In this document: positions 3,071-57,386 of the stretch, piece after piece
How positions within the stretch are numbered: position 1 is the stretch's first letter
Layout: each line of letters starts with the position of its first letter
IMG/VR virus record: IMGVR_UViG_3300009151_009555
Length of the DNA: 64,000 nt
From: a virus
Reading direction: 5' to 3' (one strand)
The notes under the pieces: model-generated
Told to the model about the DNA's origin: nothing
Database searches by the model: none
The model's input: the letters and a program-made list of their open reading frames with translations, nothing else
Made by a program: the position numbers and the translations under genes

Positions 3071-3532
3071 ATGAAATACATTAAGTTATTCGAAAACTTC
3101 TCTGAAGAACCAAACACAATTACTGTTAAATTTTATGGTGATGATTTTATGAAACATTATTGGGAAGGAAGTCAAGGTATTAAAGTTTATCAAGAACATG
3201 GATTCGCTTCTAACTTTAAAAATCTTCAGGGTAAAGGTCATACAACTTATGGAGATGGCGGACTTGAAATGGAAAAAGATTATTATTATCCGCTATTTAA
3301 AGTAGTTGATAAAGAAAATATAAAAAATTCCTTCTGGTATTATATTGTATATGGTGGTGATGAAATAAATATAGTTCAGTCTTCAGAACATTCAGATCAA
3401 GGTATTGATATACCAAATAATTTCAATTCTTTAAAAACCATTACTCATAATTGGTATTGTAAATTTGACAATGGTGTTATTCCAGGTGAAAAAGACCACA
3501 GAGGATACTTTGAGATCGTATCTGTTAAATAA
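3071..3532 (+). CDS. MK-N-terminal family protein (MKYIKLFENF)
   Basis: ORF 2999..3532 trimmed to the ATG at 3071, which is preceded by AAATATATACTCTAATAAA. Confidence 0.55.
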   Translation: MKYIKLFENFSEEPNTITVKFYGDDFMKHYWEGSQGIKVYQEHGFASNFKNLQGKGHTTYGDGGLEMEKDYYYPLFKVVDKENIKNSFWYYIVYGGDEINIVQSSEHSDQGIDIPNNFNSLKTITHNWYCKFDNGVIPGEKDHRGYFEIVSVK

Positions 3533-3554
3533 TCTAAGAAAAAAAAATACTATT

Positions 3555-4031
3555 ATGAAACACATTAAAACATTCGAATCATACTCTGTAAACGAGAACT
3601 GGATCGGCGACGCATGGAACTGGATCAAAGAAAAACTTACTTCATGGATTTCTCGCTTGACTGGAGACTTCAAAGAAGGAGCTCAATATGCTATAGACTG
3701 GATCAAAGACAACTACGATATGATGAAAGAAACTGTAGAAGGATTAAGAAAAGCATCCGAAGTAGAAATAGAAAAGTTATTTAACTGGGTTAAATCTATT
3801 ACTTTGAATACAGACCAGATGATTCCTGCTATGGAGTCAGCAGAAGAATCTAAATCTATTCTAGATAAGATAGCTCGTATATCAGGAGCGTCTATTGCAA
3901 CTCTAGCTTGTTTTGGTGGTCCAGTAGCAGCACTTGCGGGATTGATTATGAGTAATGGTGTATTGTTTTTAGCAGGAGCTGTAGCTGCGGTAATCGCTTG
4001 GTCGATAGTTTCTGCAGTAGGAAATGAATAA
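3555..4031 (+). CDS. MK-N-terminal family protein (MKHIKTFESY) with C-terminal transmembrane helices
   Basis: ORF 3465..4031 trimmed to the ATG at 3555. The C-terminus is hydrophobic and Ala/Gly-rich. Confidence 0.55.
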   Translation: MKHIKTFESYSVNENWIGDAWNWIKEKLTSWISRLTGDFKEGAQYAIDWIKDNYDMMKETVEGLRKASEVEIEKLFNWVKSITLNTDQMIPAMESAEESKSILDKIARISGASIATLACFGGPVAALAGLIMSNGVLFLAGAVAAVIAWSIVSAVGNE

Positions 4032-4057
4032 GATAAAAAAATGAATAAGATAAAGAT

Positions 4058-4519
4058 ATGAAACATTTAAAAAGATTTAATGAAAGTAAAGAAGAAGAGT
4101 TTGATGTGGAATATATCAGACATTGCTTTGTAGATATAATCGACGAATTCAATCTAAAGATAGAAGATAAAAGCTTTAAAGAATATGATATGACAGATAA
4201 AGTGCACACAGAAGTTCCTTGTCTACAGATTGTAATCGACTTACCTAGGCTTAATGGAAGAATAGCTTTTGTAGGAGAAGTAAGCGAGTTTGAAAAGCAA
4301 TATGGTTTATGTAATGCTATAGAGGACTTGGTAAAAGCGAGCTCGGATCTAGCTAAGATATTAGAGACGGTGGATGTGGCGATTAAAAGATTGTCTGACG
4401 AATTTCCAGAGTATAAGTTCACTAACAACCATATCAATGATAAGTTGAAATCAAGAGTTCTATATGCGACTAAATCAGATGGTGATAAACCAAAGATGTT
4501 TATAACTATAACGAAATGA
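4058..4519 (+). CDS. MK-N-terminal family protein (MKHLKRFNES)
   Basis: ORF track. Same first 10 residues as the protein at 5012. Confidence 0.55.
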   Translation: MKHLKRFNESKEEEFDVEYIRHCFVDIIDEFNLKIEDKSFKEYDMTDKVHTEVPCLQIVIDLPRLNGRIAFVGEVSEFEKQYGLCNAIEDLVKASSDLAKILETVDVAIKRLSDEFPEYKFTNNHINDKLKSRVLYATKSDGDKPKMFITITK

Positions 4520-4974
4520 AAAGAATAAAAAGTTTTAAGTTATTCGAATCGGTCGATCCTGAAATAGTAGAGAAGGTATGTTCTTTATACGAGGATGTAA
4601 GGTCTATCGGGCATATCTTAGAAGAAGAAGGATTTGAGCCAGAGTATAAGATAACAGTGGTGTGCGTTCCTGAAGGAACTCTTCAGAAAGAGGTCAGAAC
4701 CATTCAGGTCAGAAAATCTGAAGAGATCAGAGGGTTCTTGAGAAGATACAACTTTATGAAACTGAGATGCTTCGTAGTAACTATAAGGAATGCCAATCCA
4801 AAAAATCTTGATCATAAAGAGTCTATTGATTTTTTCAAAGAAGAGGTCGATAGGTATTTCGCACTGTTGAAGGATCATCTGGATTATGTTCCAGAAGAGC
4901 ATATAAAAAAACAGATTTGGCATTCTACGGGACCGTACTATGATATATCTATATCTTCTGATTTTTTCAAATAA
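4516..4974 (+). CDS. MK-N-terminal family protein (MKRIKSFKLFES)
   Basis: ORF track. ATGA overlap with the upstream gene. Confidence 0.55.
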   Translation: MKRIKSFKLFESVDPEIVEKVCSLYEDVRSIGHILEEEGFEPEYKITVVCVPEGTLQKEVRTIQVRKSEEIRGFLRRYNFMKLRCFVVTIRNANPKNLDHKESIDFFKEEVDRYFALLKDHLDYVPEEHIKKQIWHSTGPYYDISISSDFFK

Positions 4975-4977
4975 TAT

Positions 4978-4994
4978 TTAATATATACTCTAAT
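4978..4994 (+). promoter_or_regulatory. class-A promoter-like motif TTTAATATATACTCTAAT, 18 nt upstream of the ATG
   Basis: One of at least 18 instances of the same motif immediately 5-prime of plus-strand MK-family genes. Confidence 0.5.
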
Positions 4995-5011
4995 AAAAAA
5001 ATAAACTAACT

Positions 5012-5410
5012 ATGAAACACTTAAAAAGATTTAACGAATCTGAGATACCAAATCCACATGCGTGGAGAAATAAGCCAGCTGCAGAAAAAGAAACAAACGT
5101 CTTAGATATGGTAAGAGGTGGTGATGTAAATGCTCTTGAAGACTTCTTACATGCAAATGAAGCAGACTTAAAAAGAAATGTTACTATGGCTGCAAAGTTT
5201 TCGGCACCAGGTACTCGTCATCAAAATAATGAAATATATGATTATGTAATGGATCACTATATCGATATAATCGATATGGAAGCTGTTGCTAAATGGTTGA
5301 AATATGACAGATCACATCGTGATTACGTGGCTTCAAAGTCTAATGGAAGAGACATTGATAGTGAAGGTAATGATTGGTATGGTTTCGATCATCCAGAAGA
5401 TCTTAAATAA
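5012..5410 (+). CDS. MK-N-terminal family protein (MKHLKRFNES)
   Basis: ORF track. Preceded by TTTAATATATACTCTAAT at 4978..4994 and followed by a terminator. Confidence 0.55.
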   Translation: MKHLKRFNESEIPNPHAWRNKPAAEKETNVLDMVRGGDVNALEDFLHANEADLKRNVTMAAKFSAPGTRHQNNEIYDYVMDHYIDIIDMEAVAKWLKYDRSHRDYVASKSNGRDIDSEGNDWYGFDHPEDLK

Positions 5411-5414
5411 TATT

Positions 5415-5443
5415 AAACCCATTCAAATCGAGTGGGTTTTTTT
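5415..5443. terminator. rho-independent terminator hairpin plus T-run
   Basis: AAACCCA...TGGGTTT stem followed by TTTTTTT. An A-run upstream gives it the potential to act on both strands. Confidence 0.5.
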
Positions 5444-5444
5444 A

Positions 5445-5633
5445 TCATGAGTTTTTCACATGACTTACATAAGATCCTATAGCGATTCCTGATAGTGTAG
5501 CCAGAGGTCCTACGAATTGTATAGGTATGAACTGGTCTAAAGTCAATTCAATACCGAATATAACAGTCCACAATATGGTTGGTAACAAGATGATTGATAC
5601 CAGTGCTGGAGTTTCTTTGATAAACTTTCTCAT
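5445..5633 (-). CDS. small membrane protein, 62 aa
   Basis: ORF track. Two hydrophobic helices. Confidence 0.4.
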   Translation of the reverse strand: MRKFIKETPALVSIILLPTILWTVIFGIELTLDQFIPIQFVGPLATLSGIAIGSYVSHVKNS

Positions 5634-5660
5634 TTTATTTTAATTTACTTTTATGAAATC

Positions 5661-6095
5661 TTAGTATTCAAACCTTTCGTCTAAATCAAATAGTTTGTCG
5701 AACTCTTCCTCTGGAAGATAATCAAGTTCTCCTATGACGCAGCAGACGAAGCTATGTGCTCTACCATATACTGGATAGTTATCCAGCACCTCTGATAGTA
5801 TCTTACCAATCTCTGTTATTGGTTTGACTTGTAGTCCAATCATAATCTCTTTCATGTTCATAACTTCATACGGGCCTTTGTCGTCGTAGCTGTATGTGCC
5901 GAACTTCTGTATGGCTTTATCAATCTTATTGATAAGATTGAGTGCATCGGGACTGATACTGACAGGTTGTTTCTTACTTCTAGTAATCTCGTCGATATAG
6001 TCGATTACGGACTCTGCTAATGAAGAGAACTCTTGTTGGTTCATTTTAGAGTCTGCCTCATTAAGCAGAGCGATGATTTTGTTTTCTATGTCCAT
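5661..6095 (-). CDS. hypothetical protein
   Basis: ORF 5661..6170 trimmed to the ATG at 6095 (MDIENKIIALL). The untrimmed N-terminus would read through the adjacent tRNA-like element. Confidence 0.45.
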   Translation of the reverse strand: MDIENKIIALLNEADSKMNQQEFSSLAESVIDYIDEITRSKKQPVSISPDALNLINKIDKAIQKFGTYSYDDKGPYEVMNMKEIMIGLQVKPITEIGKILSEVLDNYPVYGRAHSFVCCVIGELDYLPEEEFDKLFDLDERFEY

Positions 6096-6109
6096 AGTGT
6101 TTATTTTTG

Positions 6110-6215
6110 TTGTCAGGACAGGATTCGAACCTGTATGTTGAAAGTTCCGAATATCACACTCGCTTATCAACTATAATGCACTTCACTTTAGCGTATACCA
6201 TTCCGCCACCTGACT
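6110..6215 (-). tRNA. tRNA-like element, unusually long (about 106 nt); isotype unresolved
   Basis: The minus-strand reading has an acceptor AGTCAGG/CCTGACA (one mismatch) and a Leu/Ser-type D-arm GGCGGAATGGTATACGC. It has a T-arm ACAGG-TTCGAAT-CCTGT. About 56 nt lie between the D- and T-arms, too long for a standard class-II tRNA. Confidence 0.45.
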
Positions 6216-6235
6216 ATACAAATATAGTATTTATT

Positions 6236-6251
6236 TTTAATATATACTCAT
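6236..6251 (+). promoter_or_regulatory. class-A motif TTTAATATATACTCAT abutting the ATG at 6252
   Basis: Motif instance. Confidence 0.5.
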
Positions 6252-6881
6252 ATGAAGTACATAAAATTATTCGAAGCAAAAAAGACATATACACAGAAGT
6301 CAAAAGAACTTTATGATAAGTTTAATTCGCTTATAGACGAAGCGACCAAAATAGAAGTAGAGGATGTCATGAGATCCATTTTCGACATAACCGGATCGCC
6401 AACCAGCGAAAGTTATTATATAAGATGGAGTGTAAAGGGTACTAATAAGGCAGGCATTACATCGCCGCTTTTCCATGATGTGGATACTTATAAATTGGTC
6501 AAATACGCCTATGACAATCTTTTGCTGGGCAATCTTACTATGGATGCTTCTCTTTCCTATGATATTCAGTCGGTTAGAGATGAATTACTAGAGTTGGTAG
6601 AAGATGAAGTGGTTTATGTAAAGGAAACTTTAGAGTCTATGGGATATGAGTTTGACTACCAAAAATACGTTCCAACAACTGGTTCGCCCACCATAAGATT
6701 TCGTGTTATCAAAAAGGACGTGGATGGCTCTTCTATAATAGAAGATAGGGAATACTATTCTTCTTTGCCTAAGTCTATAATAAAGCCTTTTGGTTTATTT
6801 ATGATGCAGTACAAGGTTCCTGATGAAAAGGCCGCAGAGTTCGCCAATCTGTTGGGATCCGCTGACTGGTCCAAAGAATAA
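6252..6881 (+). CDS. MK-N-terminal family protein (MKYIKLFEA)
   Basis: ORF track. Preceded by TTTTTAATATATACTCAT directly at the ATG. Confidence 0.55.
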   Translation: MKYIKLFEAKKTYTQKSKELYDKFNSLIDEATKIEVEDVMRSIFDITGSPTSESYYIRWSVKGTNKAGITSPLFHDVDTYKLVKYAYDNLLLGNLTMDASLSYDIQSVRDELLELVEDEVVYVKETLESMGYEFDYQKYVPTTGSPTIRFRVIKKDVDGSSIIEDREYYSSLPKSIIKPFGLFMMQYKVPDEKAAEFANLLGSADWSKE

Positions 6882-6891
6882 AGTTTTTAAT

Positions 6892-7806
6892 ATGAAGTGG
6901 ATAAAGTTTTACGAGAATTTCAGACCGTCTGGTGGAATCCTTCCGGTCAGAGAGTTAAGACTAGAAGAGTTGAAAGAACTGCTTCGTAATAATTGTAATG
7001 ACTTTTTGGATATACTAAAGTCAGTAGACTATGACCTTGTCGGGGCGAAACAAAGTTTACTTTTCAGGAGGTCTCCAGACATGGGCGAAATTGTATACTC
7101 TAATCCAGGAAGTGCCGGCCACGAAAGAATAGCTCCTTATTCTCCGGTGGGTAACTACCATAACCTGATTATTTCTAATTTAGAATCATGGAAAGAGTAT
7201 CCAAAAAGAAACAAGTCTATATGTACTGGTAGATTCTCTAGGATAGAAATAGCACATGGTAAAGAAATCTATCTGGTTATACCATACGATAAAACAAGAA
7301 TAGGTATATCTCCAAGTATGGATATGTGGTTTGCTTTTAAAAAATTAACAAAGTATAAAGTACTTGCACCAACTGGAAATCAAAAATTTGATTATGAAAC
7401 ACCAGGATTGATTACAGACTGGTTCAAAAACATCATCGACGTGGTCTCTAAAAAGGCGGGATCACAAATAAGCGATGTTAGTTGGGCTGCCTTAAAACCT
7501 TATTTAGACCAAAGATACACTGATTTTGCCAAGGTTAAATACCAGTCACAGCCGGTTTCTAAAAAAGTAGAAGCACCTAAGTACTCTTATTTCCCTGAAT
7601 ACGATAGGAATCAAACACTACTCAATAATCTTGAAAGAGTATTAGATCCAAATGCACACGGGTTTAGTATTGGTTATATGAAAGACCTTCCAAGCATCTT
7701 CAGTCAAAAAAGTGCGGAATGTTGGTTTCAAGACGATTGTTTAATGGTCAAATGGAACCTTCTAAAAGATAAAGGAAAAGAAGAGATTCGTTCTATGTTC
7801 GAATAG
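6892..7806 (+). CDS. MK-N-terminal family protein (MKWIKFYENF), 304 aa
   Basis: ORF 6823..7806 trimmed to the internal ATG at 6892, which carries the family N-terminus. Confidence 0.5.
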   Translation: MKWIKFYENFRPSGGILPVRELRLEELKELLRNNCNDFLDILKSVDYDLVGAKQSLLFRRSPDMGEIVYSNPGSAGHERIAPYSPVGNYHNLIISNLESWKEYPKRNKSICTGRFSRIEIAHGKEIYLVIPYDKTRIGISPSMDMWFAFKKLTKYKVLAPTGNQKFDYETPGLITDWFKNIIDVVSKKAGSQISDVSWAALKPYLDQRYTDFAKVKYQSQPVSKKVEAPKYSYFPEYDRNQTLLNNLERVLDPNAHGFSIGYMKDLPSIFSQKSAECWFQDDCLMVKWNLLKDKGKEEIRSMFE

Positions 7807-8037
7807 AATTCTTATTTAATAAAACAAATTAGGAAGTTAAGAGAACCGTTTTTTTAAAAATCGTTGTCGTCGGCTGACGCCGAAAAGATGTGGTGCCTTG
7901 CGATTTATCTGATAAACTTTCTTCTATCTGAAATTATCTACTATTGCGTTGGCTAAGTCTGGAGACTTAGTTATATTATGTTCTGAAGAATAATATAAAT
8001 CATTTTTAATATATACTATAATAAATCAAATATAAGA

Positions 8038-8778
8038 ATGAAGTATTTAAAGAAATTCGAACTCTTCGAGAAGAAAGAAGAGAAATACACTGGCAAGAAT
8101 AGAATCATTCTATTAGGTCCACCAACTATTGGTAAATCAACTATTTCTAAGGCATTAGGTGAAAAGCTTGGATTAGAGGTTATATCACTTGATATGAACC
8201 AAATGAAGTTTGGTGGCTTCGGTGAAAAAGAAGAAGTTGAATGTGTAAAATGGACTCTTTCTAATAAAGTAAACACTCCAAGTATATTGGACTTTGGAGG
8301 TGGACATATCTACCAAGGAAATGCTAAAGATTTAATTAAAGGATATAATAACGTATTCGTTTTAATACCAAATGAAGACTATGAGTTAAGCAATGATATA
8401 CTGAGACAGAATTCAAGAACCCACGATATGAGAAAAATGATAGATCATATCTTAAATTCTCTTAAAAGTCCACGTTGTGAATTCTCAGATGATAAGAAAG
8501 AAAAAGCTATTGAGATTGCAAAGAAGATACATTCTGGTGGTACAGGTAAATTGGAAGAGAGTGATATACCTAAGGCAAGTTTAGATAAATTTGGTGAGGG
8601 TTTAAAAGGTGGATTTCATTCGGCTCCTAATTGGGATAAATACACCAACATGTATACTAAAAGACATGATAAGATAAATAGAAGTATAACAGATAATATC
8701 ATAGAAGCCTTTACTGAAAAGGGAAATAGAAGGTCTAAGTCTGCTATTGTAAATGATATTATAAAGAAATTGAAATAA
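8038..8778 (+). CDS. P-loop nucleotide/nucleoside kinase-like protein with MK-family N-terminus (MKYLKKFELFE)
   Basis: Walker A motif ILLGPPTIGKST, then a short kinase-like core (shikimate/adenylate-kinase-like arrangement). Confidence 0.5.
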   Translation: MKYLKKFELFEKKEEKYTGKNRIILLGPPTIGKSTISKALGEKLGLEVISLDMNQMKFGGFGEKEEVECVKWTLSNKVNTPSILDFGGGHIYQGNAKDLIKGYNNVFVLIPNEDYELSNDILRQNSRTHDMRKMIDHILNSLKSPRCEFSDDKKEKAIEIAKKIHSGGTGKLEESDIPKASLDKFGEGLKGGFHSAPNWDKYTNMYTKRHDKINRSITDNIIEAFTEKGNRRSKSAIVNDIIKKLK

Positions 8779-8780
8779 TA

Positions 8781-8960
8781 TTAAGATTTAAACAATCTTT
8801 TAATAAATCTCAATGTTTTACCTTTCTTTCTAGAATATCCAACATGTCCATTAGGAGTGTATACGTTCCAACTACCATTGTAATAAACTTCAACCTTATC
8901 ACCATTTTCAGTGAATAAGTCTCCTTCGACTGGATCGCTCGGTCGAACTGTATACATCAT
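8781..8960 (-). CDS. possible small protein of 59 aa (MMYTVRPSDPVEGDLFTENGDKVEVYYNGSWNVYTPNGHVGYSRKKGKTLRFIKRLFKS)
   Basis: Read by eye. Its ATG sits 1 nt after the stop of 8962..9222. Confidence 0.3.
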   Translation of the reverse strand: MMYTVRPSDPVEGDLFTENGDKVEVYYNGSWNVYTPNGHVGYSRKKGKTLRFIKRLFKS

Positions 8961-8961
8961 A

Positions 8962-9222
8962 TTACATATCAGATACTTCGATACTCAATGGAGTTCCATC
9001 GATTATCTCTGTGATCTCTTTGTCTAGAACTCCTTTAGGGACATAGTTGTTTATGTCGTTAACGCTCCATCTAAGACCTCTTAGTATAAGCATAATTTTT
9101 TTACCAACTGTTCGTTGTATATTCTCAATAGATTGTATCGCTTCATCTATTGTTCTAGGATTTTCGTCGTTGGCTACTGCCTTTTTGAAATCTCCTTTGG
9201 TGTCTACTATATTTACTATCAT
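8962..9222 (-). CDS. hypothetical protein, 86 aa
   Basis: ORF track. Confidence 0.45.
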   Translation of the reverse strand: MIVNIVDTKGDFKKAVANDENPRTIDEAIQSIENIQRTVGKKIMLILRGLRWSVNDINNYVPKGVLDKEITEIIDGTPLSIEVSDM

Positions 9223-9252
9223 ATATGTTTTATTATGATTATATCAATTTGT

Positions 9253-9504
9253 TTAGTCCAATATCTTCATCAACTGAAATTCTCTTTCTAACTGTTTAGA
9301 TGATGGTAATGTAGGTTTGTTATTGAACTGATACTTACTATCAATGTCGACTCCACGATGGTCACAGTTCCATGTCATTGACTTTCTGACCCATTCTTTT
9401 TCTTTGAAGTCGTATTCGAGTTTTTCTCTTCGGTGTATGGTATACCCGTTGACTACAACAATATGATGTGTTGTTTTTACTTCTTCTTGTTTCTTGAATA
9501 TCAT
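9253..9504 (-). CDS. hypothetical protein, 83 aa
   Basis: ORF track. Confidence 0.45.
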   Translation of the reverse strand: MIFKKQEEVKTTHHIVVVNGYTIHRREKLEYDFKEKEWVRKSMTWNCDHRGVDIDSKYQFNNKPTLPSSKQLEREFQLMKILD

Positions 9505-9583
9505 TGTATGTCGTATCGTTTCTACAAAGATAGTTTTTTATTTTTCAAAAATAATATATAAACAATAAAAAAAATATTTAAGA

Positions 9584-9931
9584 ATGAAACATATTAAAAA
9601 ATTTGAAAGTTTTTCTACTAATGAAGAGATAAGCTTTAAAGGAATCGCAGCAGGTGCGATGATGGCACTTATGACTGCTTGTCATAACGGTGAAGTAAAC
9701 GGTGAAGCATCAGATGTTTATACAGGTGATATGCTTGTTAAAAGAATCGAGATGGGTGGTGGAAAGCACAACTTTTTCTTAGTACACGGTGAAGACGAGC
9801 AAGGTAAACATGTTGAGTTTGCAACAGACAACCTTACTTTCAACGTAGGAGATTCTATACACGTCAACTTCGATAGTGAAGAAGCTTATCCTTTAGATGA
9901 TAGAAGCAATGTAGCAGAAATTGGATCGTAA
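9584..9931 (+). CDS. MK-N-terminal family protein (MKHIKKFESF) with a lipoprotein-like MALMTAC segment
   Basis: ORF track. A cysteine follows a hydrophobic stretch near the N-terminus. Confidence 0.5.
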   Translation: MKHIKKFESFSTNEEISFKGIAAGAMMALMTACHNGEVNGEASDVYTGDMLVKRIEMGGGKHNFFLVHGEDEQGKHVEFATDNLTFNVGDSIHVNFDSEEAYPLDDRSNVAEIGS

Positions 9932-9953
9932 TATACTATAATATAATAAAAAA

Positions 9954-9977
9954 GGGGACTAAATGGTCCCTTTTTTG
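9954..9977. terminator. terminator hairpin GGGAC/GTCCC plus T-run
   Basis: AAAAAGGGGACTAAATGGTCCCTTTTTT, lying between convergent genes. Confidence 0.5.
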
Positions 9978-10234
9978 TGTTTTAAAGCCAATATATGCTG
10001 TAGAAAGGGAAGAGATAGTTCGTTTATGGACACATGTTTCCCCGCTCCTGTTATGAGTCCATAGTTGGCGGTTCTTTCCATCCATTCTACGTCTCTTCGA
10101 TGAACTCTTATTCCGTCTATTATAATCTCAGACATGTTTATATCCTCTATAATAAATGTGTGGTCTATATCAGGATGTTTATACTCGCGGTGCTTATACT
10201 CCCTCATACTCTTCTGATAAAGAAAGCATATCAT
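9959..10234 (-). CDS. hypothetical protein
   Basis: ORF track. Start uncertain; overlaps the 3-prime end of 10194..10631. Confidence 0.35.
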   Translation of the reverse strand: MICFLYQKSMREYKHREYKHPDIDHTFIIEDINMSEIIIDGIRVHRRDVEWMERTANYGLITGAGKHVSINELSLPFLQHILALKHKKGTI

Positions 10235-10631
10235 CTAGATCTGCTTGGTTCCTAACCAACCAATCTTTGTAGAAGTCATGTAACATACCGTCTTCATCTT
10301 CGAAAGAACTTCTATCAATCCTCATAAAAGGATCTCCTTCGTAGTTTTCTTTGTCTTCTGCTAAGAAGTATCTAACACACTCTAATCCAGCCATAGAGTT
10401 TTGCTCGTTCCATACGTTGTATCCTTTTGTAGGTAGATAAAAGATGTTTGACTCTGGATGTCCTAACGACCCTCCTGTGTCCATAGCTACACATAACCCT
10501 TCTGCTATCATTTCGTCTAAGTGTTTAGCGATTGTTTCACCACCAGCAACTTTGACGATTCCAGACGTTCCTTGCCCTGTTCTTTTTTGCGTCTCGATGA
10601 ACGCCTTGTAAAATTCTTTCTTTGTCATCAT
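10194..10631 (-). CDS. hypothetical protein, 145 aa
   Basis: ORF track. Motif GGETIAKHLDEMIAEG; family not recognised. Confidence 0.45.
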   Translation of the reverse strand: MMTKKEFYKAFIETQKRTGQGTSGIVKVAGGETIAKHLDEMIAEGLCVAMDTGGSLGHPESNIFYLPTKGYNVWNEQNSMAGLECVRYFLAEDKENYEGDPFMRIDRSSFEDEDGMLHDFYKDWLVRNQADLDDMLSLSEEYEGV

Positions 10632-51100: not shown

Positions 51101-51433
51101 CTTGACTATTATACAGATATAAAAGTTTCGGAAAATGTATTGGTTTCAAACCATTCTTTTGTTAAAGAGATAGGGACCGGGCCTATGGTTCTGACTAGAG
51201 AGATTTTGAAGATAGAAGATATCATGAATGGTGGATTTTCGAATAGCTTCGAGAAGGATGGTAAGAGATACCTTATCGAGACACCGGACGTATTTGTTTT
51301 AGATGATTCGGAAAATGGTCATATCAATTACGCGGTGCATCTGTTTGATGGATCTTGGACGGATAAGAAAGAAGAATGGTCGGTCGTTGTGAGAAATTCC
51401 TACGATTCGTGGAAAATAAAGAACAGAATATGA
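48119..51433 (+). CDS. 1104-aa multi-domain glycosyltransferase (GT-A/DxD domain, GT25-like, GT2, GT32-like)
   Basis: Domain 1: VVIVSVNYND...LLLDADIVV. Domain 2: YCLNLDRRVDRWEIV...FSAIDG...LIFEDD (GT25/Lic2B-like). Domain 3: VSIVIPCYNQSEFLIECIDSCLSQT...LDADDKI (GT2). Domain 4: IIHWVWLGKRPVP...DYIRAKVLHDFGGIWLDADCV (GT32/Och1-like). Confidence 0.85.
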   Translation: MILIQQISNLDLEYIDDIKECLRHNVLNPIIDTIVIFSNCKNFESSIKIDSRKIKYFEVEIDLFEMMKYGKKNSKNFIIYSSPFLKFGIDLKKVMTFDMENVLKEENCYYIFDKRLDIKNKRNIEDILDGQKLPNSLNLQKMGYYTKGFQYNSYDWKVSRTYKEKKVELISEKFELPKIPNKVEQKIIDIIPSKRVGIKKLDVVIVSVNYNDFLIVSLENNIDIFENITVVTSSSDFLCQKICEKFGVKCIVTDVMYENNAVFNKGKAINEGIRSIMDPDYILLLDADIVVMNKIDLDTLEDNFLYTSERYIVPNYDSYKRYIYGDNEKFRVDPDNGLGFFQLFNYSKGIKYSELFDNAAVSDIKFRDKFKEKRNIGKRVLHLGTDSNWDGRKSKIFLNYNEFIFLLEKKPFDINSYFDKIYCLNLDRRVDRWEIVDHMFKKNNINVERFSAIDGEKISDLEFSDTGLDEDQCSNKGLIENKNSLACLLSHLEIIKEAKLNNYKRILIFEDDVVFSKSFKKDISKIESYNWKLLYLGASQFDWENIEISNNHYKCRKTLGTFAYAIDSSIYDDIIGVLSKREKSIDNILSDIQKKYKRSSFVAYPNIVISDVSDSDIRKSKDKIDYAKIVRWDMSNFEFTKILKKVSIVIPCYNQSEFLIECIDSCLSQTVLPDSILVLLMDKKSISMKQLLKSKSKKIKCFISNRRYLSNARNYLIDKVDTEYFIPLDADDKIPSNFIEEISLIDADVVYVGSKYFGGVSGCWPNPITEEINWSKLTTFRRNSLVCTALIKKDSFMKSGRYSDNLWAFEDMDLWIKMYKNGMDFKKCNGTFLSYRKYLSQNSLLSKTNSDSKNTEILKKEIMKDSFYSKTPKIIHWVWLGKRPVPQEVIDTWYRNLPDSEWRYMMWNEENFDMESCDFLKKAYSLKKYGICVDYIRAKVLHDFGGIWLDADCVINCDISPFLQWDFFASWENESYLNIGLIGCSPNLVAMKNILDYYTDIKVSENVLVSNHSFVKEIGTGPMVLTREILKIEDIMNGGFSNSFEKDGKRYLIETPDVFVLDDSENGHINYAVHLFDGSWTDKKEEWSVVVRNSYDSWKIKNRI

Positions 51434-52563
51434 GAGTAGCAGTATTCAACAACTATAAAGAGCATCTTTTTGTAGATCCTAAACCTACAGGTATAAGAAA
51501 TGTGATAGATTATGACAATATAGGAAATATTGTATTCTTAGAATCCATTTCAAGAGAACTGGATGCGGATTCTATAAGCATTTATGATTTTATACTAAAC
51601 TATAAATTGTATGAAGAAAGATATGATATGCTCATACTTTCATTAGCAAATATGGTTTCTCCTGGATATAGCATTTCTGAAGATTTTATGACGGCGTTGG
51701 AGAAGACCAAGATACCAATCTGTATATTCTCAATAGGAGTTCAGGCACAGACAGAAGATGAGCTTTATAAAAATACATTGAGTTCAAATGTTAGAAGAAT
51801 ATTAGAACTATCTAATAAAAGTGGAACAACTATTGGATTGAGAGGTGAGACGACAAAGGCTTATTTAGATAGAGAAGGAGTCAAGAACACGCATGTAATT
51901 GGATGTCCGTCACTGTTCTATAAGAAAAGCATACCTATCAAAAATGGAACTGGACCGAAAGATATATTACTTAGTGGTGGGTTTGAAGGATATTGGAGAG
52001 ATCCTCTATCGAAGATGTTCAATTTTGGATATAAATATTGCAGGTCCTATCTGGTCCAAAGTGAGTCCAGGATTCTATTTGACAAATATAAAATATCGGA
52101 GATAGAGTTGAATACATGGAATGTTTCCAAAGAAAAGAAATCATATCTGATGTGCAGAGGTTATGACTATCTTTATTATTGTCATCCGAATCTAGACAAA
52201 TTAGATTTGGAAAATTGGTTTATAGATAATTCGATTTTCCTAAACGATTTTGATAATTGGATGGAGTCGATGAACACGTATGATATGCATATAGGTGCTA
52301 GGTTTCATGGATCTGTTATGAGCACACTAGCTGGAGTACCTACGTTGATATTGGTAGGAGATTTAAGAGTTAAGGAGTTTGTGGAATTCCACGGTTTACC
52401 AAACATGAACATCTTCGACTTCGATGAAGATGTTAAGCCAAAAGATTTATATGATATGATTGATTATCAAAAATATGAAAGTAGATATGATAATCTTAAA
52501 TCTAACTACATCGGATATTTGAATAGAAATGGCTTGGAGTTTAAGTTAAATCCAACCCTCTAA
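51430..52563 (+). CDS. polysaccharide pyruvyl transferase-like protein (CsaB/WcaK family), tentative
   Basis: ORF 51376..52563 trimmed to the ATG at 51430, which overlaps the GT stop (ATATGA). The C-terminal block MHIGARFHGSVMSTLAGVPTLIL resembles the conserved C-terminal region of pyruvyl transferases. Confidence 0.4.
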   Translation: MRVAVFNNYKEHLFVDPKPTGIRNVIDYDNIGNIVFLESISRELDADSISIYDFILNYKLYEERYDMLILSLANMVSPGYSISEDFMTALEKTKIPICIFSIGVQAQTEDELYKNTLSSNVRRILELSNKSGTTIGLRGETTKAYLDREGVKNTHVIGCPSLFYKKSIPIKNGTGPKDILLSGGFEGYWRDPLSKMFNFGYKYCRSYLVQSESRILFDKYKISEIELNTWNVSKEKKSYLMCRGYDYLYYCHPNLDKLDLENWFIDNSIFLNDFDNWMESMNTYDMHIGARFHGSVMSTLAGVPTLILVGDLRVKEFVEFHGLPNMNIFDFDEDVKPKDLYDMIDYQKYESRYDNLKSNYIGYLNRNGLEFKLNPTL

Positions 52564-54405
52564 GTTATTAAGTCTTCTTTTCAAAGATTGAAGTAAATAA
52601 CGGTTTGCTTTGATATAGTCTTCGTCGTTCAAGAAATCTTTGTTGTCTGGCTCATTAAAGACTAATCTTTTTTGTCTTCCAGAACCTAATACTCCTTCCA
52701 TGTTTTCTATCTGGTTTATCTTCTCTTTTAAATCTTTAAGTATTGTTTGCTTAGTCATTGCATCCATTTTGTAGTTGTACGCAAACCTGTCAGTCCAATA
52801 GAAGCTCTTCTCATTTGTTTTAAGTCCAAGTGCTTGACAATCTTCTGATATAAAGTTTCCTTTCTCAGTTTTGAAGACTTTTACACCATGGTCGTTGAAG
52901 TAGTATTTTCCGTTTTCTCCTTTGCTGAGTACGTCACCTGCAATATAGTCGCTGTCGTGTTCAAACTTTTTAAGATATTCTCCACACTCCATACTATCAA
53001 GACTCACCATGTTTTTGTCTTGGTCTGAAAGTGTTTCGGTTCCTGTTCTACATTCTTGTAGGTCCGAATCTTCTTCTATCCAGTTTATACACTGCATTTG
53101 GTCATCCTCCAAAAAGTTATCGTCGTACCATTCAGAATAAACGGAATCGTTTTCGTGTATCCAGTTTCCGGTTACACAGTCTCTTATTATAGAACTATAC
53201 TCATCTGGATACCATCCTCTATTTGATCCGTACTCGACGTGCATTGCGTCCTCTCTGTATATCCAGTCTCCCAAAGGATCTGAATAGATTGCCTCGCTTT
53301 CTGGTATTCTACAGTCGAAATAGTCAGACCATTTTCCTGAAGTGTCGTCATATGAACCATCAGTATGTGTCATTATGTAACAACCTTCGTAGTCTTCGTC
53401 ATCGTCGTTTATTAAAAGGTTTTTGGATCTCAAAAGCCTTTTGAATGTGTCCATATAAGGATACATATCGAAGTCGTGGCTTTTTAACTCTACGGTTGCT
53501 CTTAAGCCGAAGTATTCTTCATCACCTAGCTTGAAGTCTTTGCTTGCTCCGTATTGTGATGTAAGTCTTTTAAGCCATCCTTGCTTGTCTGCGTATTGTT
53601 GAAACATCAATTTTGTTGCATCATCTATGGCATAGATTCTATCCATGTAGTATTCAACATTATCTATGTTAATCTCTTTTATTTTCCAGATTAGAACTCT
53701 TCCTCTAATCTCTTCACCATCTTCACTTTTTAGTATCAATAGTCTACAAACTTCTGGGTTTTCAGAGTAGATGTTTAAGTATTGACCACATCTTGGATAT
53801 CTCATACAAGAGCTTCCAAGCTCTCCTGTTTCGAACTCGTATTGCTTTTCGTTATACCAATGTTTTATTTCATTGCCTTCTACCAATACGAATTCTGCAT
53901 CAGTGTCTCCAATCTTTTTGAAAAGGTTTGTAAACTCTTCTACTTCTTTGTTATTGTATTTATCAGGAAAAATTTGATTTACAAGTTTGGCAATCTTAGC
54001 ATCACTTCTTGCTTTGTCTTTAAGACTCCAGGGTTCGCTGTTGTATATGTAGTTCACGTCGCTTTGTGATATCGTTCCGTCTTCTATTTTTGTATGGATT
54101 CTACTGAGTGCATCTAGTCCGACACCATGTATTTTTGTAAACTCTTCAATTGATTTCTTTAAAGAATTGACTGCTTTTTTTATTTGTGTAAATGAAAAGT
54201 ATCCTTCTTTATCAGACATACCAATAAAAGTCATATCTGGTTTTACGTCTGTATATTCGACATCTATTAAGTCTTTTGCAATCTTATTTTTTAAACTAAG
54301 TTTGTATAAAGAATCTTTGAACTCTTTTGTATAATAAATCATTGATTCATTTACTACGTTCTCAAACAATCTTTCACCTAAAAATGTGTTATATCTTGAT
54401 ATCAT
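52546..54405 (-). CDS. large acidic protein, 619 aa; paralog of the N-terminal domain of 35747..37273
   Basis: Shared block HWYNEKQYEFETGELGSSCMRYPRCGQYLNIYSENPEVCRLLILKSEDGEEIRGRVLIW. The C-terminal half is Asp/Glu/Trp/Tyr-rich. Confidence 0.6.
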   Translation of the reverse strand: MISRYNTFLGERLFENVVNESMIYYTKEFKDSLYKLSLKNKIAKDLIDVEYTDVKPDMTFIGMSDKEGYFSFTQIKKAVNSLKKSIEEFTKIHGVGLDALSRIHTKIEDGTISQSDVNYIYNSEPWSLKDKARSDAKIAKLVNQIFPDKYNNKEVEEFTNLFKKIGDTDAEFVLVEGNEIKHWYNEKQYEFETGELGSSCMRYPRCGQYLNIYSENPEVCRLLILKSEDGEEIRGRVLIWKIKEINIDNVEYYMDRIYAIDDATKLMFQQYADKQGWLKRLTSQYGASKDFKLGDEEYFGLRATVELKSHDFDMYPYMDTFKRLLRSKNLLINDDDEDYEGCYIMTHTDGSYDDTSGKWSDYFDCRIPESEAIYSDPLGDWIYREDAMHVEYGSNRGWYPDEYSSIIRDCVTGNWIHENDSVYSEWYDDNFLEDDQMQCINWIEEDSDLQECRTGTETLSDQDKNMVSLDSMECGEYLKKFEHDSDYIAGDVLSKGENGKYYFNDHGVKVFKTEKGNFISEDCQALGLKTNEKSFYWTDRFAYNYKMDAMTKQTILKDLKEKINQIENMEGVLGSGRQKRLVFNEPDNKDFLNDEDYIKANRYLLQSLKRRLNNLEGWI

Positions 54406-54470
54406 AACATATATATAAAAAAATCTATATTAAAAAATAATATATAGAGTATAAAAAAAATATTTAAATT

Positions 54471-54722
54471 ATGGAAAATCCTAAGTACTTAGTGAATATA
54501 CACTATTCTAATCCTTATAGAAGTGGATCAATAGGAACAATGTCTGCTAGTGGACTATGGGAAACATTACCAGTTACTTCAGGTGGATGGTTCGTAGCAA
54601 CTATGCCAGAAATAAGAATTTCTGCAACAGGTTCAACTTATGCGGATGCATTAAATGCTCTTTTAGTAATTGCTACAGCATCGACTACATACGACGCTGC
54701 TCAAGGTCCAGTGAAAAACTAA
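54471..54722 (+). CDS. hypothetical protein, 83 aa
   Basis: ORF track. AATAATATATAGAGTAT lies upstream. Confidence 0.45.
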   Translation: MENPKYLVNIHYSNPYRSGSIGTMSASGLWETLPVTSGGWFVATMPEIRISATGSTYADALNALLVIATASTTYDAAQGPVKN

Positions 54723-54746
54723 TAGTATATTTTCTATATAATTTTT

Positions 54747-54977
54747 ATGGGTAAATATATTGTTGGGTTTGGTAGTGAAATGACCGATATGCCTTTGTCT
54801 TTTTTTGAAGGACTTAGTATATTAAGGGAAGAACTTGTCGGAGATACTTATTTCATAAAGTTTGAAAACGGTGATTCTGATATGACTTTCTGTATACATC
54901 AAAATGAATACAAGCGTGTAAAGATTGATTTGAGAGATAAGAAGATACAAAATATTATAAACAAAAAAGAGAGCTAA
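54747..54977 (+). CDS. hypothetical protein, 76 aa
   Basis: ORF track. Followed by the terminator AGAGAGC-TAAT-GCTCTCT plus T8 at 54963..54993. Confidence 0.45.
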   Translation: MGKYIVGFGSEMTDMPLSFFEGLSILREELVGDTYFIKFENGDSDMTFCIHQNEYKRVKIDLRDKKIQNIINKKES

Positions 54978-54990
54978 TGCTCTCTTTTTT

Positions 54991-55152
54991 TTATTTCTCT
55001 TTAGTTGCAATCCAAATTAGTATATAGATCCAAAATGCTGATGGTATAAATATAAATCCTATTCTCCAAACAATTGCTGAAATGTTCGTTGAGTCTTCCA
55101 ATCCTCCACAGACTCCTGCTATGTAGGAATTTTTTCGTCTTTTAAATTCCAT
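54991..55152 (-). CDS. PspC-domain small membrane protein, 53 aa
   Basis: Read by eye: MEFKRRKNSYIAGVCGGLEDSTNISAIVWRIGFIFIPSAFWIYILIWIATKEK. The IAGVCGGL motif plus a following TM helix is the PspC signature. Confidence 0.5.
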   Translation of the reverse strand: MEFKRRKNSYIAGVCGGLEDSTNISAIVWRIGFIFIPSAFWIYILIWIATKEK

Positions 55153-55154
55153 TT

Positions 55155-55586
55155 TTATTTAAGTGTTTCGTTTATTCGTTGTTCTCTGAATGATTGCATG
55201 TCCATATTTGTTTCTTTAAACTCAAAAAATGTTAAATTGACCATCTTATCATATTGTTGAGCTTCTTCTTTACTCGCCTTAGGATGTAAGACATTTTCAT
55301 AGGATGACCAGATATCTTTCTTCTCAATCATACCATATTTCTCAACAAGTTTTTTGTTGAAGTCTTCATATGTATCGATATCAACTGTCAAAATTTCTTC
55401 CATATCGTATGAGTAGTTTGCGATGTTTTCGGTCTTGAACTCTTCTATGTTCAGATCCTCGACTTTTTTTATGGCATCTTCTTTCGAGAAGACTATGGTA
55501 TCCGGTGTTCCACCGCCACCATCAAACTCCGAATATATGTTGTCGTCGTATTCGAATCCTTTTCTTAAAATAACATATGCTTTCAT
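55155..55586 (-). CDS. hypothetical acidic protein, 143 aa
   Basis: ORF track. Confidence 0.45.
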   Translation of the reverse strand: MKAYVILRKGFEYDDNIYSEFDGGGGTPDTIVFSKEDAIKKVEDLNIEEFKTENIANYSYDMEEILTVDIDTYEDFNKKLVEKYGMIEKKDIWSSYENVLHPKASKEEAQQYDKMVNLTFFEFKETNMDMQSFREQRINETLK

Positions 55587-56041
55587 ATTCCTAATTGATT
55601 TAATTTTATACTTCTTTTTTTCTTTTCGTCCATAAGTATCTCTACTTCATGTCTTTTAAGCCAAGACCCGGTCATGAAGTTTAGTATGGCTTGTTTGTTT
55701 GCTGGATCTTTGGCGTAGCTGTCGTGTGATCTATAGTCGATTGCTTTTACCTTTACACTATCCACGGATACTTCCAAAATCTCTACTTCGTATGTAACAG
55801 TGAACGGAATAGGTTTTTCATCGTCGCTGCCTTTAGTTGATAGTCCGTATCCTGGAACAATCGCGTTGTCTCCTGGTTCTATCTCAACAAGTTCTTGTGC
55901 GTCTTCTTTGGTTTTGTTTAGATCCAATTTTGCTTTGTCTAACTCTTTGTTCAGTTCTATCACTTTGGTAAATAAAATCATAGCAAATACGATAGATATT
56001 AAAGTAAGAGATGCTAAAACAAGCATTATTATATTAGTCAT
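55583..56041 (-). CDS. membrane-anchored C-terminal-tag family protein (...KRSIKLNQLGI)
   Basis: ORF track. N-terminal TM helix. Confidence 0.5.
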   Translation of the reverse strand: MTNIIMLVLASLTLISIVFAMILFTKVIELNKELDKAKLDLNKTKEDAQELVEIEPGDNAIVPGYGLSTKGSDDEKPIPFTVTYEVEILEVSVDSVKVKAIDYRSHDSYAKDPANKQAILNFMTGSWLKRHEVEILMDEKKKRSIKLNQLGI

Positions 56042-56453
56042 TTCCTAAAAGTTTTGTAAGGTTTGCGTTTCTGTTTATAATATTGTCTCCACCAACAAGC
56101 TTTTTGATATGATCGACTGAATATTTGTATGATGTTCCGTTTGGTGCTTGTGCAATGACCGGGTATTTTCTATTCTTTGTTTTGATGTCTGTGATGATCA
56201 TCTCTCCCATGTTTGCATTAAACGACAAGCCGATTACGTTTTGAGTAAATCCTAATCTACGGCATATACCTTCATAGATAGAATCTACTTTCTCGCTTTT
56301 TTCGGTAGTCGAAACTTTCATTGTCGCTGAATAGTATGCACTGTTGTATTTTATGGATCCAAAAGATATGGATACACCTTCTTCTTTTTCGATTTGAGCA
56401 ATTGCTGCTTGTATCTTCGCTTGTACTTTGTTTATCTTAGTATCTGTTATCAT
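56034..56453 (-). CDS. hypothetical protein
   Basis: ORF 56034..56480 trimmed to the ATG at 56453 (MITDTKINKV). Confidence 0.4.
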   Translation of the reverse strand: MITDTKINKVQAKIQAAIAQIEKEEGVSISFGSIKYNSAYYSATMKVSTTEKSEKVDSIYEGICRRLGFTQNVIGLSFNANMGEMIITDIKTKNRKYPVIAQAPNGTSYKYSVDHIKKLVGGDNIINRNANLTKLLGND

Positions 56454-56528
56454 ATCTTTTCCCTTTCTACAAATATACAAAAAATGCCGATATAAAATAT
56501 ATCGGCATTAAAAAAATACTAAAAAAGA

Positions 56529-56849
56529 TTATTTCTTCTCACCAGTAATAATCTTGACATTGGTTGTAACTGCGTCCATCATGTCTTTCATTGCTTCGTG
56601 ATAAGCGATAAAAGCTTTGTGGTACTTCATGTTGTTTTCCAATATCTCTTTCGAGTTTTTAAGAGTAGATTCAGTTCCTTTGGTGAAAGTATTGAATACT
56701 TCAAATGGATTTGTGAACATGTTCTTAACAAGCTCGTTTGTATCCAAATTGGATTTGGATTTCTCAGACATGTCTTTATAGACAGTTGTCAATGTTTCTT
56801 TTTGAATTTCGGCCATCTTTTGCCAGTTTTCCATTATTTTTTCTATCAT
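56529..56849 (-). CDS. hypothetical protein, 106 aa
   Basis: ORF track. Confidence 0.45.
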   Translation of the reverse strand: MIEKIMENWQKMAEIQKETLTTVYKDMSEKSKSNLDTNELVKNMFTNPFEVFNTFTKGTESTLKNSKEILENNMKYHKAFIAYHEAMKDMMDAVTTNVKIITGEKK

Positions 56850-56869
56850 ATCTATTTTATTTAATTTTT

Positions 56870-57301
56870 TTAAAAAGTTGGAGGTTCTATCAATTTTTCT
56901 GAAGATTCTTCTTCATTTTTAAGATTCTCTGCAACATATTCCAAATAATCAATATTTTGCTTAGTACTTTCTGTGACATTATCGGAATATTCCAAAATAG
57001 AATCTATTTTAGTATCTCTTTCTAATATTTTGAATTTCTGTTTCAGAAAATCTTCAATCTCATTGCTGAAGCTTACATTGTTCTTCTTCAGCTCGTCGTA
57101 GTATGGTTTTCCCAATACATTGAGTGTTGATATCATCATTGCTGTAGTTCCGTCTATATAACCAGATACTTCTACATCTTCTCCCAATATGTGGTACTTT
57201 GTTTTAGCTATAGTAGTAGTATTGAAAATAGTTCCTTGTAATCCACTACTACTAATCGTGGTAGAGTTGCTATTGTAATATGGATTTAAATGTATTGCCA
57301 T
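56870..57301 (-). CDS. hypothetical protein, 143 aa
   Basis: ORF track. Confidence 0.45.
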   Translation of the reverse strand: MAIHLNPYYNSNSTTISSSGLQGTIFNTTTIAKTKYHILGEDVEVSGYIDGTTAMMISTLNVLGKPYYDELKKNNVSFSNEIEDFLKQKFKILERDTKIDSILEYSDNVTESTKQNIDYLEYVAENLKNEEESSEKLIEPPTF

Positions 57302-57386
57302 ATTTTTTATATTAAATATTTTGAAAAAGTTGAAAAACGGGTTTTAAAAGTAAATATATACAATATAAAAAAATAAAAATTATAAT

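Follow-up and report, generated by a model that had tools for sequence, protein, structure and literature searches.

The DNA analysed here is a stretch of 64,000 nt from a virus, IMG/VR record IMGVR_UViG_3300009151_009555, which we call the window. It has a GC content of 30 to 37% per 4-kb step (0.337 overall) and consists of small genes densely packed on both strands, and its contents include eight tRNA genes, two C5 DNA methylases and a 1104-aa triple glycosyltransferase. The element under study is a repeated box, TTTAATATATAC, which adjoins start codons and is strand specific. The initial annotation of the window had described it as a conserved motif abutting the start codons of plus-strand genes and as a possible promoter for a phage-specific factor.

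The window is part of an uncultured huge phage whose relatives are visible at the protein level only. A nucleotide search with positions 48100-55900 against 50,697 phage records gave no match, and a 702-aa window protein matched only LR745206.1 (634,780 bp) and LR756502.1 (642,428 bp). Five genomes larger than 634 kb have been described, all of them in the Mahaphage clade and with Bacteroidetes as predicted hosts (Al-Shayeb et al. 2020, PMC7162821), and the window is a protein-level relative of both records, which belong to this clade. We retrieved LR745206 whole, as a complete relative, and used it for genome-wide motif geometry and gene context; 31 window proteins have homologs in it, at about 27 to 75% identity.

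A typical copy of the motif is formed by a T-rich run, AATATATAC and usually TnTA, followed directly by the ATG or by an A-rich stretch of about 20 nt that precedes it. The looser core [AT][AT]TATATA-N gives 24 promoter-like copies before genes, 19 on the plus strand and five on the minus strand. They are listed below as candidate promoter cores, with the spacing measured throughout from the ninth motif base to the A of the ATG. We use the label class II for this late-type motif and class I for a host-type box, TAnnTTTG, that is described further on.

1671-1679, plus strand: core AATATATAA; ATG of gene 1683-2414 at 4 nt, putative leaderless type
3013-3021, minus strand: core TATATATAG; ATG of gene 2420-3007(-) (MKHLRKFNEM...) at 6 nt
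3041-3049, plus strand: core AATATATAC then TCT-A; ATG 3071 at 22 nt; four genes, 3071-3532, 3555-4031, 4058-4519 and 4516-4974
4980-4988, plus strand: core AATATATAC then TCT-A; ATG 5012 at 24 nt; gene 5012-5410
6239-6247, plus strand: core AATATATAC; ATG 6252 at 5 nt; genes 6252-6881 and 6892-7806
8008-8016, plus strand: core AATATATAC then TAT-A; ATG 8038 at 22 nt; P-loop NTPase-like protein
9553-9561, plus strand: core AATATATAA then ACA-A; ATG 9584 at 23 nt; back to back with host-type TATCTTTG at 9525-9532(-)
12380-12388, plus strand: core TATATATAC; ATG 12392 at 4 nt; three genes, 12392-12988, 12991-13392 and 13389-13982
18406-18414, plus strand: core AATATATAC then ATT-A; ATG 18440 at 26 nt; gene 18440-19486
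19522-19530, plus strand: core AATATATAC; ATG 19534 at 4 nt; single-gene unit 19534-20241
21845-21853, plus strand: core AATATATAC; ATG 21857 at 4 nt; back to back with host-type box 21820-21827(-); LR745206 ortholog keeps class II
27122-27130, minus strand: core TATATATAC; ATG of gene 26870-27118(-) at 4 nt
30500-30508, plus strand: core AATATATAA; ATG 30526 at 18 nt
35735-35743, plus strand: core AATATATAC; ATG 35747 at 4 nt (508-aa protein); back to back with host-type box 35715-35722(-); LR745206 ortholog keeps class II
39081-39089, plus strand: core AATATATAA; ATG 39093 at 4 nt
42098-42106, minus strand: weak candidate AATATATAG; ATG of gene 41751-42068(-) at 30 nt; no A at the predicted +1
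43027-43035, plus strand: core AATATATAT; ATG 43039 at 4 nt; HNH endonuclease in the tRNA cluster
46347-46355, minus strand: core TATATATAC then ATA-A; ATG of gene 45784-46326(-) at 21 nt
47216-47224, plus strand: core TATATATAA; ATG 47230 at 6 nt
48087-48095, plus strand: core AATATATAC then TTT-A; ATG 48119 at 24 nt; 1104-aa triple glycosyltransferase and pyruvyl transferase ORF (open reading frame) 51376-52563
54409-54417, minus strand: core TATATATAT; ATG of gene 52546-54405(-) at 4 nt; LR745206 ortholog keeps class II
54439-54447, plus strand: core AATATATAG then AGT-A; ATG 54471 at 24 nt; LR745206 ortholog keeps class II
57353-57361, plus strand: core AATATATAC then AAT-A; ATG 57387 at 26 nt
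58802-58810, plus strand: core TATATATAT; ATG 58814 at 4 nt; two-gene unit, 58814-59026 and 59023-59664

With up to two mismatches, TTTTAATATATACTNTA has nine matches in the window against 0.46 expected, a number that none of 100 shuffles reached, and for ATATATACT the exact matches number 11 (1.44 expected), all but one of them plus-strand. Each of the ten exact copies of AATATATAC is followed by a same-strand ATG no more than 45 nt away; such zones make up 4.6% of positions. These counts were made with fixed core patterns in place of an iteratively refined weight matrix, which was dropped because it had drifted to generic AT-rich sequence (64 hits of at least 9 bits, against about 14 in Markov simulations). 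Every site named in the initial annotation (3050, 4978, 6236, 8005, 12375, 18400, 19518, 21842, 35731, 48095, 54430 and 57351) carries a copy, the one near 54430 being the variant AATATATAG at 54439-54447. The possibility that the motif belongs to coding sequence did not hold up: a longer ORF at 2999-3532 would cross it, but the conserved N-terminus MKYIKLFENF puts the start at 3071.

The distance between motif and start codon is bimodal. In the window, 13 of the 24 copies stand 4 to 6 nt from the ATG and 11 at 18 to 30 nt, with none at 7 to 17 nt, which corrects the range of 0 to 20 nt given at first. The same two peaks are found in LR745206, with 4 nt in 32 genes, 5 nt in 12, 6 nt in five, 7 to 16 nt in only five and 17 to 29 nt in about 60. 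The leadered copies of LR745206 have an A four bases past the core in 56 of 64 cases, while the three intervening bases are unconstrained, and in the window this A is present in 22 of 24 copies. As this conserved purine at a fixed distance is the A of the ATG in the short-spacing class, it looks like the transcription start, so the likely start is the A four bases after the ninth motif base. In an anchored alignment of 120 LR745206 copies, information was confined to ttTAATATATA(A/C) and to the A four bases later, and no conserved element was seen further upstream (no -35 or -33 partner); class I has a weak ttg near -33. The core would therefore lie at about -12 to -5.

A start fixed four bases after the core would produce two kinds of unit. 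Those with the ATG 4 to 6 nt past the core (about 40% of the motif-proximal genes in LR745206 and 13 of 24 in the window) would give mRNAs that are leaderless or have leaders of 1 to 2 nt, and the remaining units would have A-rich leaders of roughly 14 to 26 nt without Shine-Dalgarno sequences. Very probably, then, about half of the class II messages of the window start at or within 2 nt of the AUG, and the proposal of leaderless or nearly leaderless transcripts can be kept for that half but not for the rest. The vacant interval of 7 to 16 nt suggests that selection favors an AUG at the very 5' end or else a leader with enough room for the ribosome. Such messages are scarce in bacteria of the host phylum, as leaderless mRNAs make up 5.5% in Flavobacterium psychrophilum (PMC9723704), and in B. 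thetaiotaomicron 3.7% of the mRNAs have leaders below 10 nt, the modal leader being 23 nt.

This geometry bears on the idea that the motif is not a promoter, but an AU-rich translation enhancer, an RNA-processing site or a piece of a duplicated cassette made of the motif and an N-terminus of the type MKHIKxFE. The host phylum would suit an enhancer, as A/U-rich upstream regions are used in Bacteroidota, which lack Shine-Dalgarno sequences (PMC6847099), and a cassette would be in line with the position of ten of the 14 window proteins with an N-terminal peptide tag (described below), which are encoded directly behind the motif. We nevertheless regard this reading as very unlikely. A bimodal spacing, instead of a fixed one, ill suits a ribosome-binding element, and the A that leadered units conserve at +4 is what would be expected of an initiating nucleotide. 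Tagged genes inside operons (4058, 4516, 12991 and 13389) do without the motif, untagged genes such as portal and sheath also lie behind it, and the motif recurs behind terminators. Paralogy as the source of the shared upstream sequence was ruled out as well, because all-against-all BLAST shows no family among the motif genes beyond the tag.

The opposite strand of the window carries class I. Minus-strand blocks of small genes are headed by (c)cTTATATTTG (extended consensus cCTTATATTTG), which corresponds to the -7 box TAnnTTTG of Bacteroidota sigma-A, a promoter type that can also have TTTG near -33. There are 16 TAnnTTTG boxes at most 40 nt from a start codon, every one of them minus-strand; of the 24 class II copies, 19 are on the plus strand.

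17432-17439, 23828-23835, 24679-24686, 26814-26821, 35715-35722 and 11 more, minus strand: predicted host-type (class I) promoters

Several class I and class II boxes stand back to back in intergenic regions of 36 to 86 nt. In the window and in LR745206, the commonest distance from the G of the class I box to the ATG is 5, found in five of the 16 window boxes. Since the box maps to -12 to -5 in F. psychrophilum (PMC9723704), this peak would be exactly leaderless and provides an internal ruler for class II. The minus-strand blocks encode a Lar-type restriction-alleviation protein, which fits early expression. These blocks would use host sigma-A promoters, and early and late genes would lie on opposite strands, as in T4.

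Given this neighbor, class II could itself be a variant -7 box for host sigma-A, working without any phage factor and with early or constitutive genes behind it. Its first five bases are like those of the host-type boxes (TATATTTG vs TATATAC), the distance peaks to the ATG are nearly equal (4 vs 5), both boxes would end at -5 or -4, and the same phage uses the host type on the opposite strand, often in leaderless form. However, conservation in class I is strongest in the TTTG, above all in its terminal G; class II has neither a TTTG nor the -33 ttg, so the motif was rightly set apart from the Bacteroidetes -7/-33 promoter. The two classes also differ in strand and in the kind of gene served, as class II precedes virion genes in LR745206. 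Neither do orthologs swap class between the window and LR745206: four pairs have class II in both, four have class I in both and none has one of each. A sigma-A reading of class II therefore seems quite unlikely to us. The distinction from sigma-70 promoters also stands, since sites with TTGACA, a 16-18 nt spacer and TATAAT are not enriched in positions 1-20000 (75 vs 79.3 expected).

The complete relative shows which genes class II precedes. In an unbiased 8-mer screen of all LR745206 upstream regions, AATATATA ranks first, with 172 sense and 44 antisense occurrences; it is near the top rank in LR756504 and enriched in the 735-kb LR756501. The extended form AATATATA[AC] occurs 124 times in sense-upstream zones vs 18 times in antisense-upstream ones, and 45 of the 66 LR745206 copies of AATATATAC are at most 45 nt upstream of a same-strand ATG. 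Searches with T4 proteins (phmmer) identified the terminase gp17, sheath gp18, tube gp19 (weakly), portal gp20 and capsid gp23 in this genome, together with gp32, the clamp loader gp44, gp46 and gp47, and PHROG scans added a head maturation protease, a head-closure protein and a baseplate wedge subunit. The motif lies before the genes for the tail sheath, terminase, portal, head maturation protease, head closure and baseplate wedge subunit, and the major capsid gene has the variant TTATATATAG upstream.

Conservation was followed in IMG/VR, where 272 stretches encode a relative of the gp55-like sigma described below; the best 80 of them (loci L029-L108) formed our set. For the orthologs of six LR745206 genes, found in 35 to 74 of the 80 loci, we aligned 23 to 35 distinct upstream sequences per gene with MAFFT, which replaced right-anchored ungapped footprints that were blurred by indels. 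An ATATATA block is invariant or nearly so upstream of the portal, protease, head-closure and other orthologs, with diverged flanks. One of the ortholog sets alternates between spacings of 4-5 nt and about 24 nt, without intermediates.

A candidate for the factor that reads the motif is encoded at 189151-189516 of LR745206. The ORF begins MYLNNKDLYVEI, much like T4 gp55, and was spotted by eye from the N-terminal NNKDLY after phmmer with T4 gp55 had given nothing usable; it was confirmed afterwards by a match to phrog_234, "late sigma transcription factor" (1.9e-7), and by an alignment with T4 gp55 that is collinear from the N-terminus (26% identity over 111 aa, pairwise E = 2e-4). The match to Sigma70_r2 is weak and under the gathering score, and a PDB sequence search with the protein gave no meaningful match. 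A tblastn search recovered relatives from each of the six huge-phage records that are related to the window and from all 15 records of Lak Prevotella megaphages, as well as from Tenacibaculum and Chryseobacterium jumbo phages and from the Xanthomonas phages Xoo-sp13 and XacN1, where they are annotated as late sigma. The best 80 IMG/VR relatives are 88 to 100% identical. The sigma is in this respect far more conserved than the other proteins of the clade, at roughly 30 to 75% identity, and the clade that carries it appears to be widespread in IMG/VR, with contigs of up to 483 kb.

The initial annotation had left the factor as a transcription factor, sigma or RNA polymerase, and of these a sigma is the most likely. 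A phage RNA polymerase, either single-subunit (T7/N4-like) or multisubunit (phiKZ/AR9-like), would agree with a short AT-rich promoter that has its start close by and no -35, a form reminiscent of phiKZ early promoters. Huge phages do sometimes encode RNA polymerases (PMC7162821). However, phmmer with E. coli RpoB and RpoC and with T7 RNA polymerase found nothing at E<=1 in the complete LR745206, although divergent phiKZ-type subunits could escape such a search; this jumbo-phage group has been described as lacking RNA polymerase (Iyer et al. 2021), and the clade has T4-type core genes and a gp55-type sigma. We consider a phage polymerase extremely unlikely as the reader of the motif.

It is also conceivable that the motif is a middle-class promoter, or the promoter for some other regulator, instead of a gp55-type late one. 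Most of the genes behind it in the window are not virion genes, and the T4 co-factors gp33 and gp45 were not detected. On the other hand, T4 late promoters also serve non-structural genes scattered in early regions, and in LR745206 the motif stands before the sheath, terminase, portal, protease and head-closure genes. That genome yielded no sigma other than the gp55-like protein (no RpoD-like homolog was found), and a single-block, -10-only architecture is a hallmark of gp55. A middle-class role thus appears unlikely.

We consider it probable that the motif serves as the promoter for late-class genes in an uncultured huge T4-like phage with a Bacteroidota host. It would be a variant of the T4 box TATAAATA, read by a phage sigma of the gp55 type. 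The expectation of a promoter for a phage-specific factor is in line with a motif that is oriented, locked to start codons, conserved as an island in the IMG/VR loci and placed before virion genes in LR745206, in a clade that encodes such a sigma. The proposed promoter would consist of a short T-rich run, the core (T/A)AATATATA(C/A), three free bases and an A as the transcription start, with no requirement for -35 or -33. Host core RNA polymerase carrying the minimal sigma of the T4 gp55 family would read it, following the same logic as at T4 TATAAATA.

The T4 late promoter TATAAATA occupies -13 to -6, and among T4-like phages its first T is poorly conserved, with CTAAATA in Aeh1 and A or T at -13 in RB49, KVP40 and S-PM2 (PMC1524935). 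The initial annotation was right that the motif does not match this sequence exactly, yet AATATATA is identical to it at 6 of 8 positions, with one mismatch at the poorly conserved first position, and shares the architecture: one AT-only block of 8 to 9 bp close to -10, which lies before virion genes and lacks a -35. The clade also encodes T4-type gp17, 18, 19, 20, 23, 32, 44, 46 and 47 besides the gp55-family sigma, and its late units run opposite in direction to the early ones. Unlike T4, the clade consensus has T and not A at the fifth position, favors C/A and a T-run on the flanks, and has a core that is apparently one base nearer the start. The late messages of T4 carry Shine-Dalgarno leaders, whereas some 40 to 50% of the units of this clade would be leaderless.

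Several points weigh against this interpretation. No gp55 homolog lies within the 64-kb window, so the link to the sigma goes through relatives at about 27 to 75% protein identity, and we infer its presence in the genome of the window phage itself. In LR745206, gp33 and gp45 were not detected (phmmer at E<=0.01 and a PHROG scan of twenty neighboring ORFs), and matches to gp45 at relaxed thresholds were noise; the group has been reported to have gp33 orthologs (Iyer et al. 2021). No recognizable virion genes lie behind the motif within the window: very few of the motif-driven proteins had any match in Pfam or PHROG, namely glycosyltransferases, a pyruvyl transferase, a P-loop protein, the HNH endonuclease and weak coiled-coil tape-measure matches. 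The strict T4 spacing, with the core at -13 to -6, would start the distance-4 arrangement, the commonest one, inside the ATG, so the core must sit one base closer than in T4. An AT-only palindromic core in a genome of 29 to 34% GC makes weak copies hard to separate from background, and some copies are counted on both strands, such as 3013-3021(-), which also scores as a plus-strand match at 3001-3017. The genes are heuristic calls, made as greedy longest ORFs with ATG starts only. Last, the promoter role itself, the exact start site and the late timing are read from sequence, the phage being uncultured.

Other phages with the same sigma family offer a further comparison. Based on k-mers in 40-kb samples, Lak-C1 and the Tenacibaculum phage pT24 appear to enrich AATAAATA upstream of genes, a sequence nearer to T4 TATAAATA. 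Class II was not seen in pT24, which shows AATAAATA and a separate box, AATTGTTATATTA. As in other T4-like phages, a short consensus would drift by lineage beside a conserved gp55-type sigma, and the series TATAAATA, AATAAATA and AATATATA appears to co-vary with lineage; Lak, pT24, Aeh1 and others keep the AAATA half, whereas this clade has an alternating TATATA core. Outside phages, leaderless genes of Actinobacteria, Deinococcus and archaea have been described with a -10 or TATA box that precedes the ATG by a short, fixed distance (PMC6028130, PMC3160421). Class II is like these promoters in the fixed distance to the ATG and the predicted start on the A of AUG, and unlike them in occurring in a phage of a phylum with 3.7 to 5.5% leaderless or short-leader host mRNAs and in being driven by a predicted phage sigma. 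Our literature search found no prior description of this promoter. Very probably, the sequence variant is new, its kind (a T4-type late promoter) is known and the leaderless use is unusually heavy.

If correct, this would be the first usable promoter model for the largest known phages, which exceed 600 kb, are uncultured and are unannotated in GenBank. The two promoter classes would sort genes into host-dependent early and gp55-dependent late ones by sequence alone, and they could help to annotate hundreds of genes without assigned function and to correct start codons. The series TATAAATA, AATAAATA and AATATATA would be a natural specificity series for a minimal sigma, in which the consensus drifts while the sigma stays recognizable, and the either/or spacing (4 to 6 nt, or at least 17 nt) a natural data set on leaderless versus leadered initiation in a Shine-Dalgarno-free phylum. 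The short promoter, predicted to be strong and orthogonal, and its sigma might also make an expression pair for Bacteroidota.

The units behind class II are in part delimited by terminator-like hairpins.

1634-1663, plus strand: hairpin of -17.3 kcal/mol (folded 54-nt segment) then TTTTCTATT, directly upstream of candidate promoter 1671-1679
5415-5439, plus strand: terminator-like hairpin closing the single-gene class II unit 5012-5410
9949-9976, plus strand: bidirectional terminator-like hairpin closing the class II unit 9584-9931
19491-19521, plus strand: intrinsic-terminator-like hairpin and T-run at the end of gene 18440-19486; the T-run merges into candidate promoter 19522-19530
27131-27163, minus strand: terminator-like hairpin and T-run abutting candidate promoter 27122-27130(-)
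46356-46386, minus strand: terminator-like hairpin and T-run abutting candidate promoter 46347-46355(-)

A rho-independent terminator had been said to sit often just before the motif, which is an overstatement, as a hairpin with a T-run abuts only four of the 24 copies (before 1671, 19522, 27130(-) and 46355(-)). One of the IMG/VR ortholog sets keeps the order terminator-promoter-ATG as at window positions 19496-19533. Hairpins also close the units that end at 5410, 9931 and 19486. The description of insulated monocistronic units suits the many single genes between opposite-strand blocks but not the several units with two to four genes, such as those that begin at 3071, 6252, 12392, 48119 and 58814.

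Two clade-specific peptide tags were found along the way, and they may be more novel than the promoter. The first is N-terminal, M-[KR]-x-[ILV]-[KR]-x-[FY] (consensus MK[YH][LI]KxF[EN]E), and is shared by 14 of 123 window proteins and 66 of 935 LR745206 proteins that are otherwise unrelated, with only two (window) and 14 (LR745206) internal matches.

3071, 5012, 6252, 8038, 9584, 12392, 12991, 13389, 39093 and 57387, plus strand: starts of genes with the N-terminal tag (examples)
2420-3007 and 45784-46326, minus strand: genes with the N-terminal tag (examples)

In the window, every N-terminally tagged gene either follows the late-type motif or belongs to an operon of that kind, and none follows a host-type promoter. 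LR756502, LR756504, LR756501 and one of two sampled IMG/VR relatives have the tag too; the 40-kb samples of Lak and pT24 did not show it. The tag is reminiscent of MKTYQEFIAE, the capsid targeting sequence of T4. The 348-aa protein encoded at 18440-19486 ends ...ESFRYLKTFESFNR, a C-terminal copy of the tag just before the terminator at 19491-19521, which may be the remnant of a fused or deleted downstream gene.

A wider and more tentative reading, which we offer as a possibility with less in its favor than against it, joins the tag to the leaderless messages. If the late sigma puts the start at the A of AUG in some 40% of late units, leaderless translation would become a form of control specific to this class, in a phylum where leaderless mRNAs are rare, and it might act in concert with phage-encoded translation factors and ribosomal proteins. 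At least 66 otherwise unrelated tagged proteins per genome would belong to the late regulon as well, the tag possibly being a capsid-targeting or processing signal like the targeting sequence of T4 internal proteins.

The second tag is a C-terminal tail, R-[DE]-x-K-L-x-x-[LI]-G-I-stop, found in 24 of 123 window proteins and 24 of 935 LR745206 proteins, with three (window) and 17 (LR745206) internal matches, and never together with the N-terminal tag.

25305-25520, 26050-26304, 34574-34792, 63121-63453 and 59677-61785, minus strand: genes with the C-terminal tail (examples)
44940-45413, plus strand: gene with the C-terminal tail

In the window, 23 of the 24 carriers are on the minus strand, which holds all the host-type TAnnTTTG boxes, and one carrier is the Lar-type restriction-alleviation protein. 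For 14 of the 24, the stop codon and the ATG that follows share bases (GGAATATGA). Synonymous variation suggests that the tail is conserved at the protein level, and it could be a degron, a targeting tail or in part a translational-coupling signal.

Some further observations concern single loci. In LR745206, the divergent intergenic region of 42 nt between the head-closure gene and the next gene (191972-192013) contains one near-palindromic TTTTATATATAAAA, which is invariant across 33 to 35 distinct sequences from this and the orthologous IMG/VR loci and could act as a late promoter in both directions. In pT24 (locus L023), AATTGTTATATTA stands before three genes, at 10259(-), 19959(+) and 31365(+), including the gp55-like gene, and it may represent a distinct, perhaps middle, promoter class. 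The homologs of adjacent window genes are dispersed from 2.7 kb to 603 kb across the 635-kb LR745206, with essentially no synteny in the accessory region. The pyruvyl transferase ORF 51376-52563 and the gene before it overlap by 58 nt, which makes a later true start probable for this ORF. The eight-tRNA cluster at 42464-44815 is split by small ORFs and by the HNH endonuclease gene 43039-43785, which has a late-type promoter candidate of its own.

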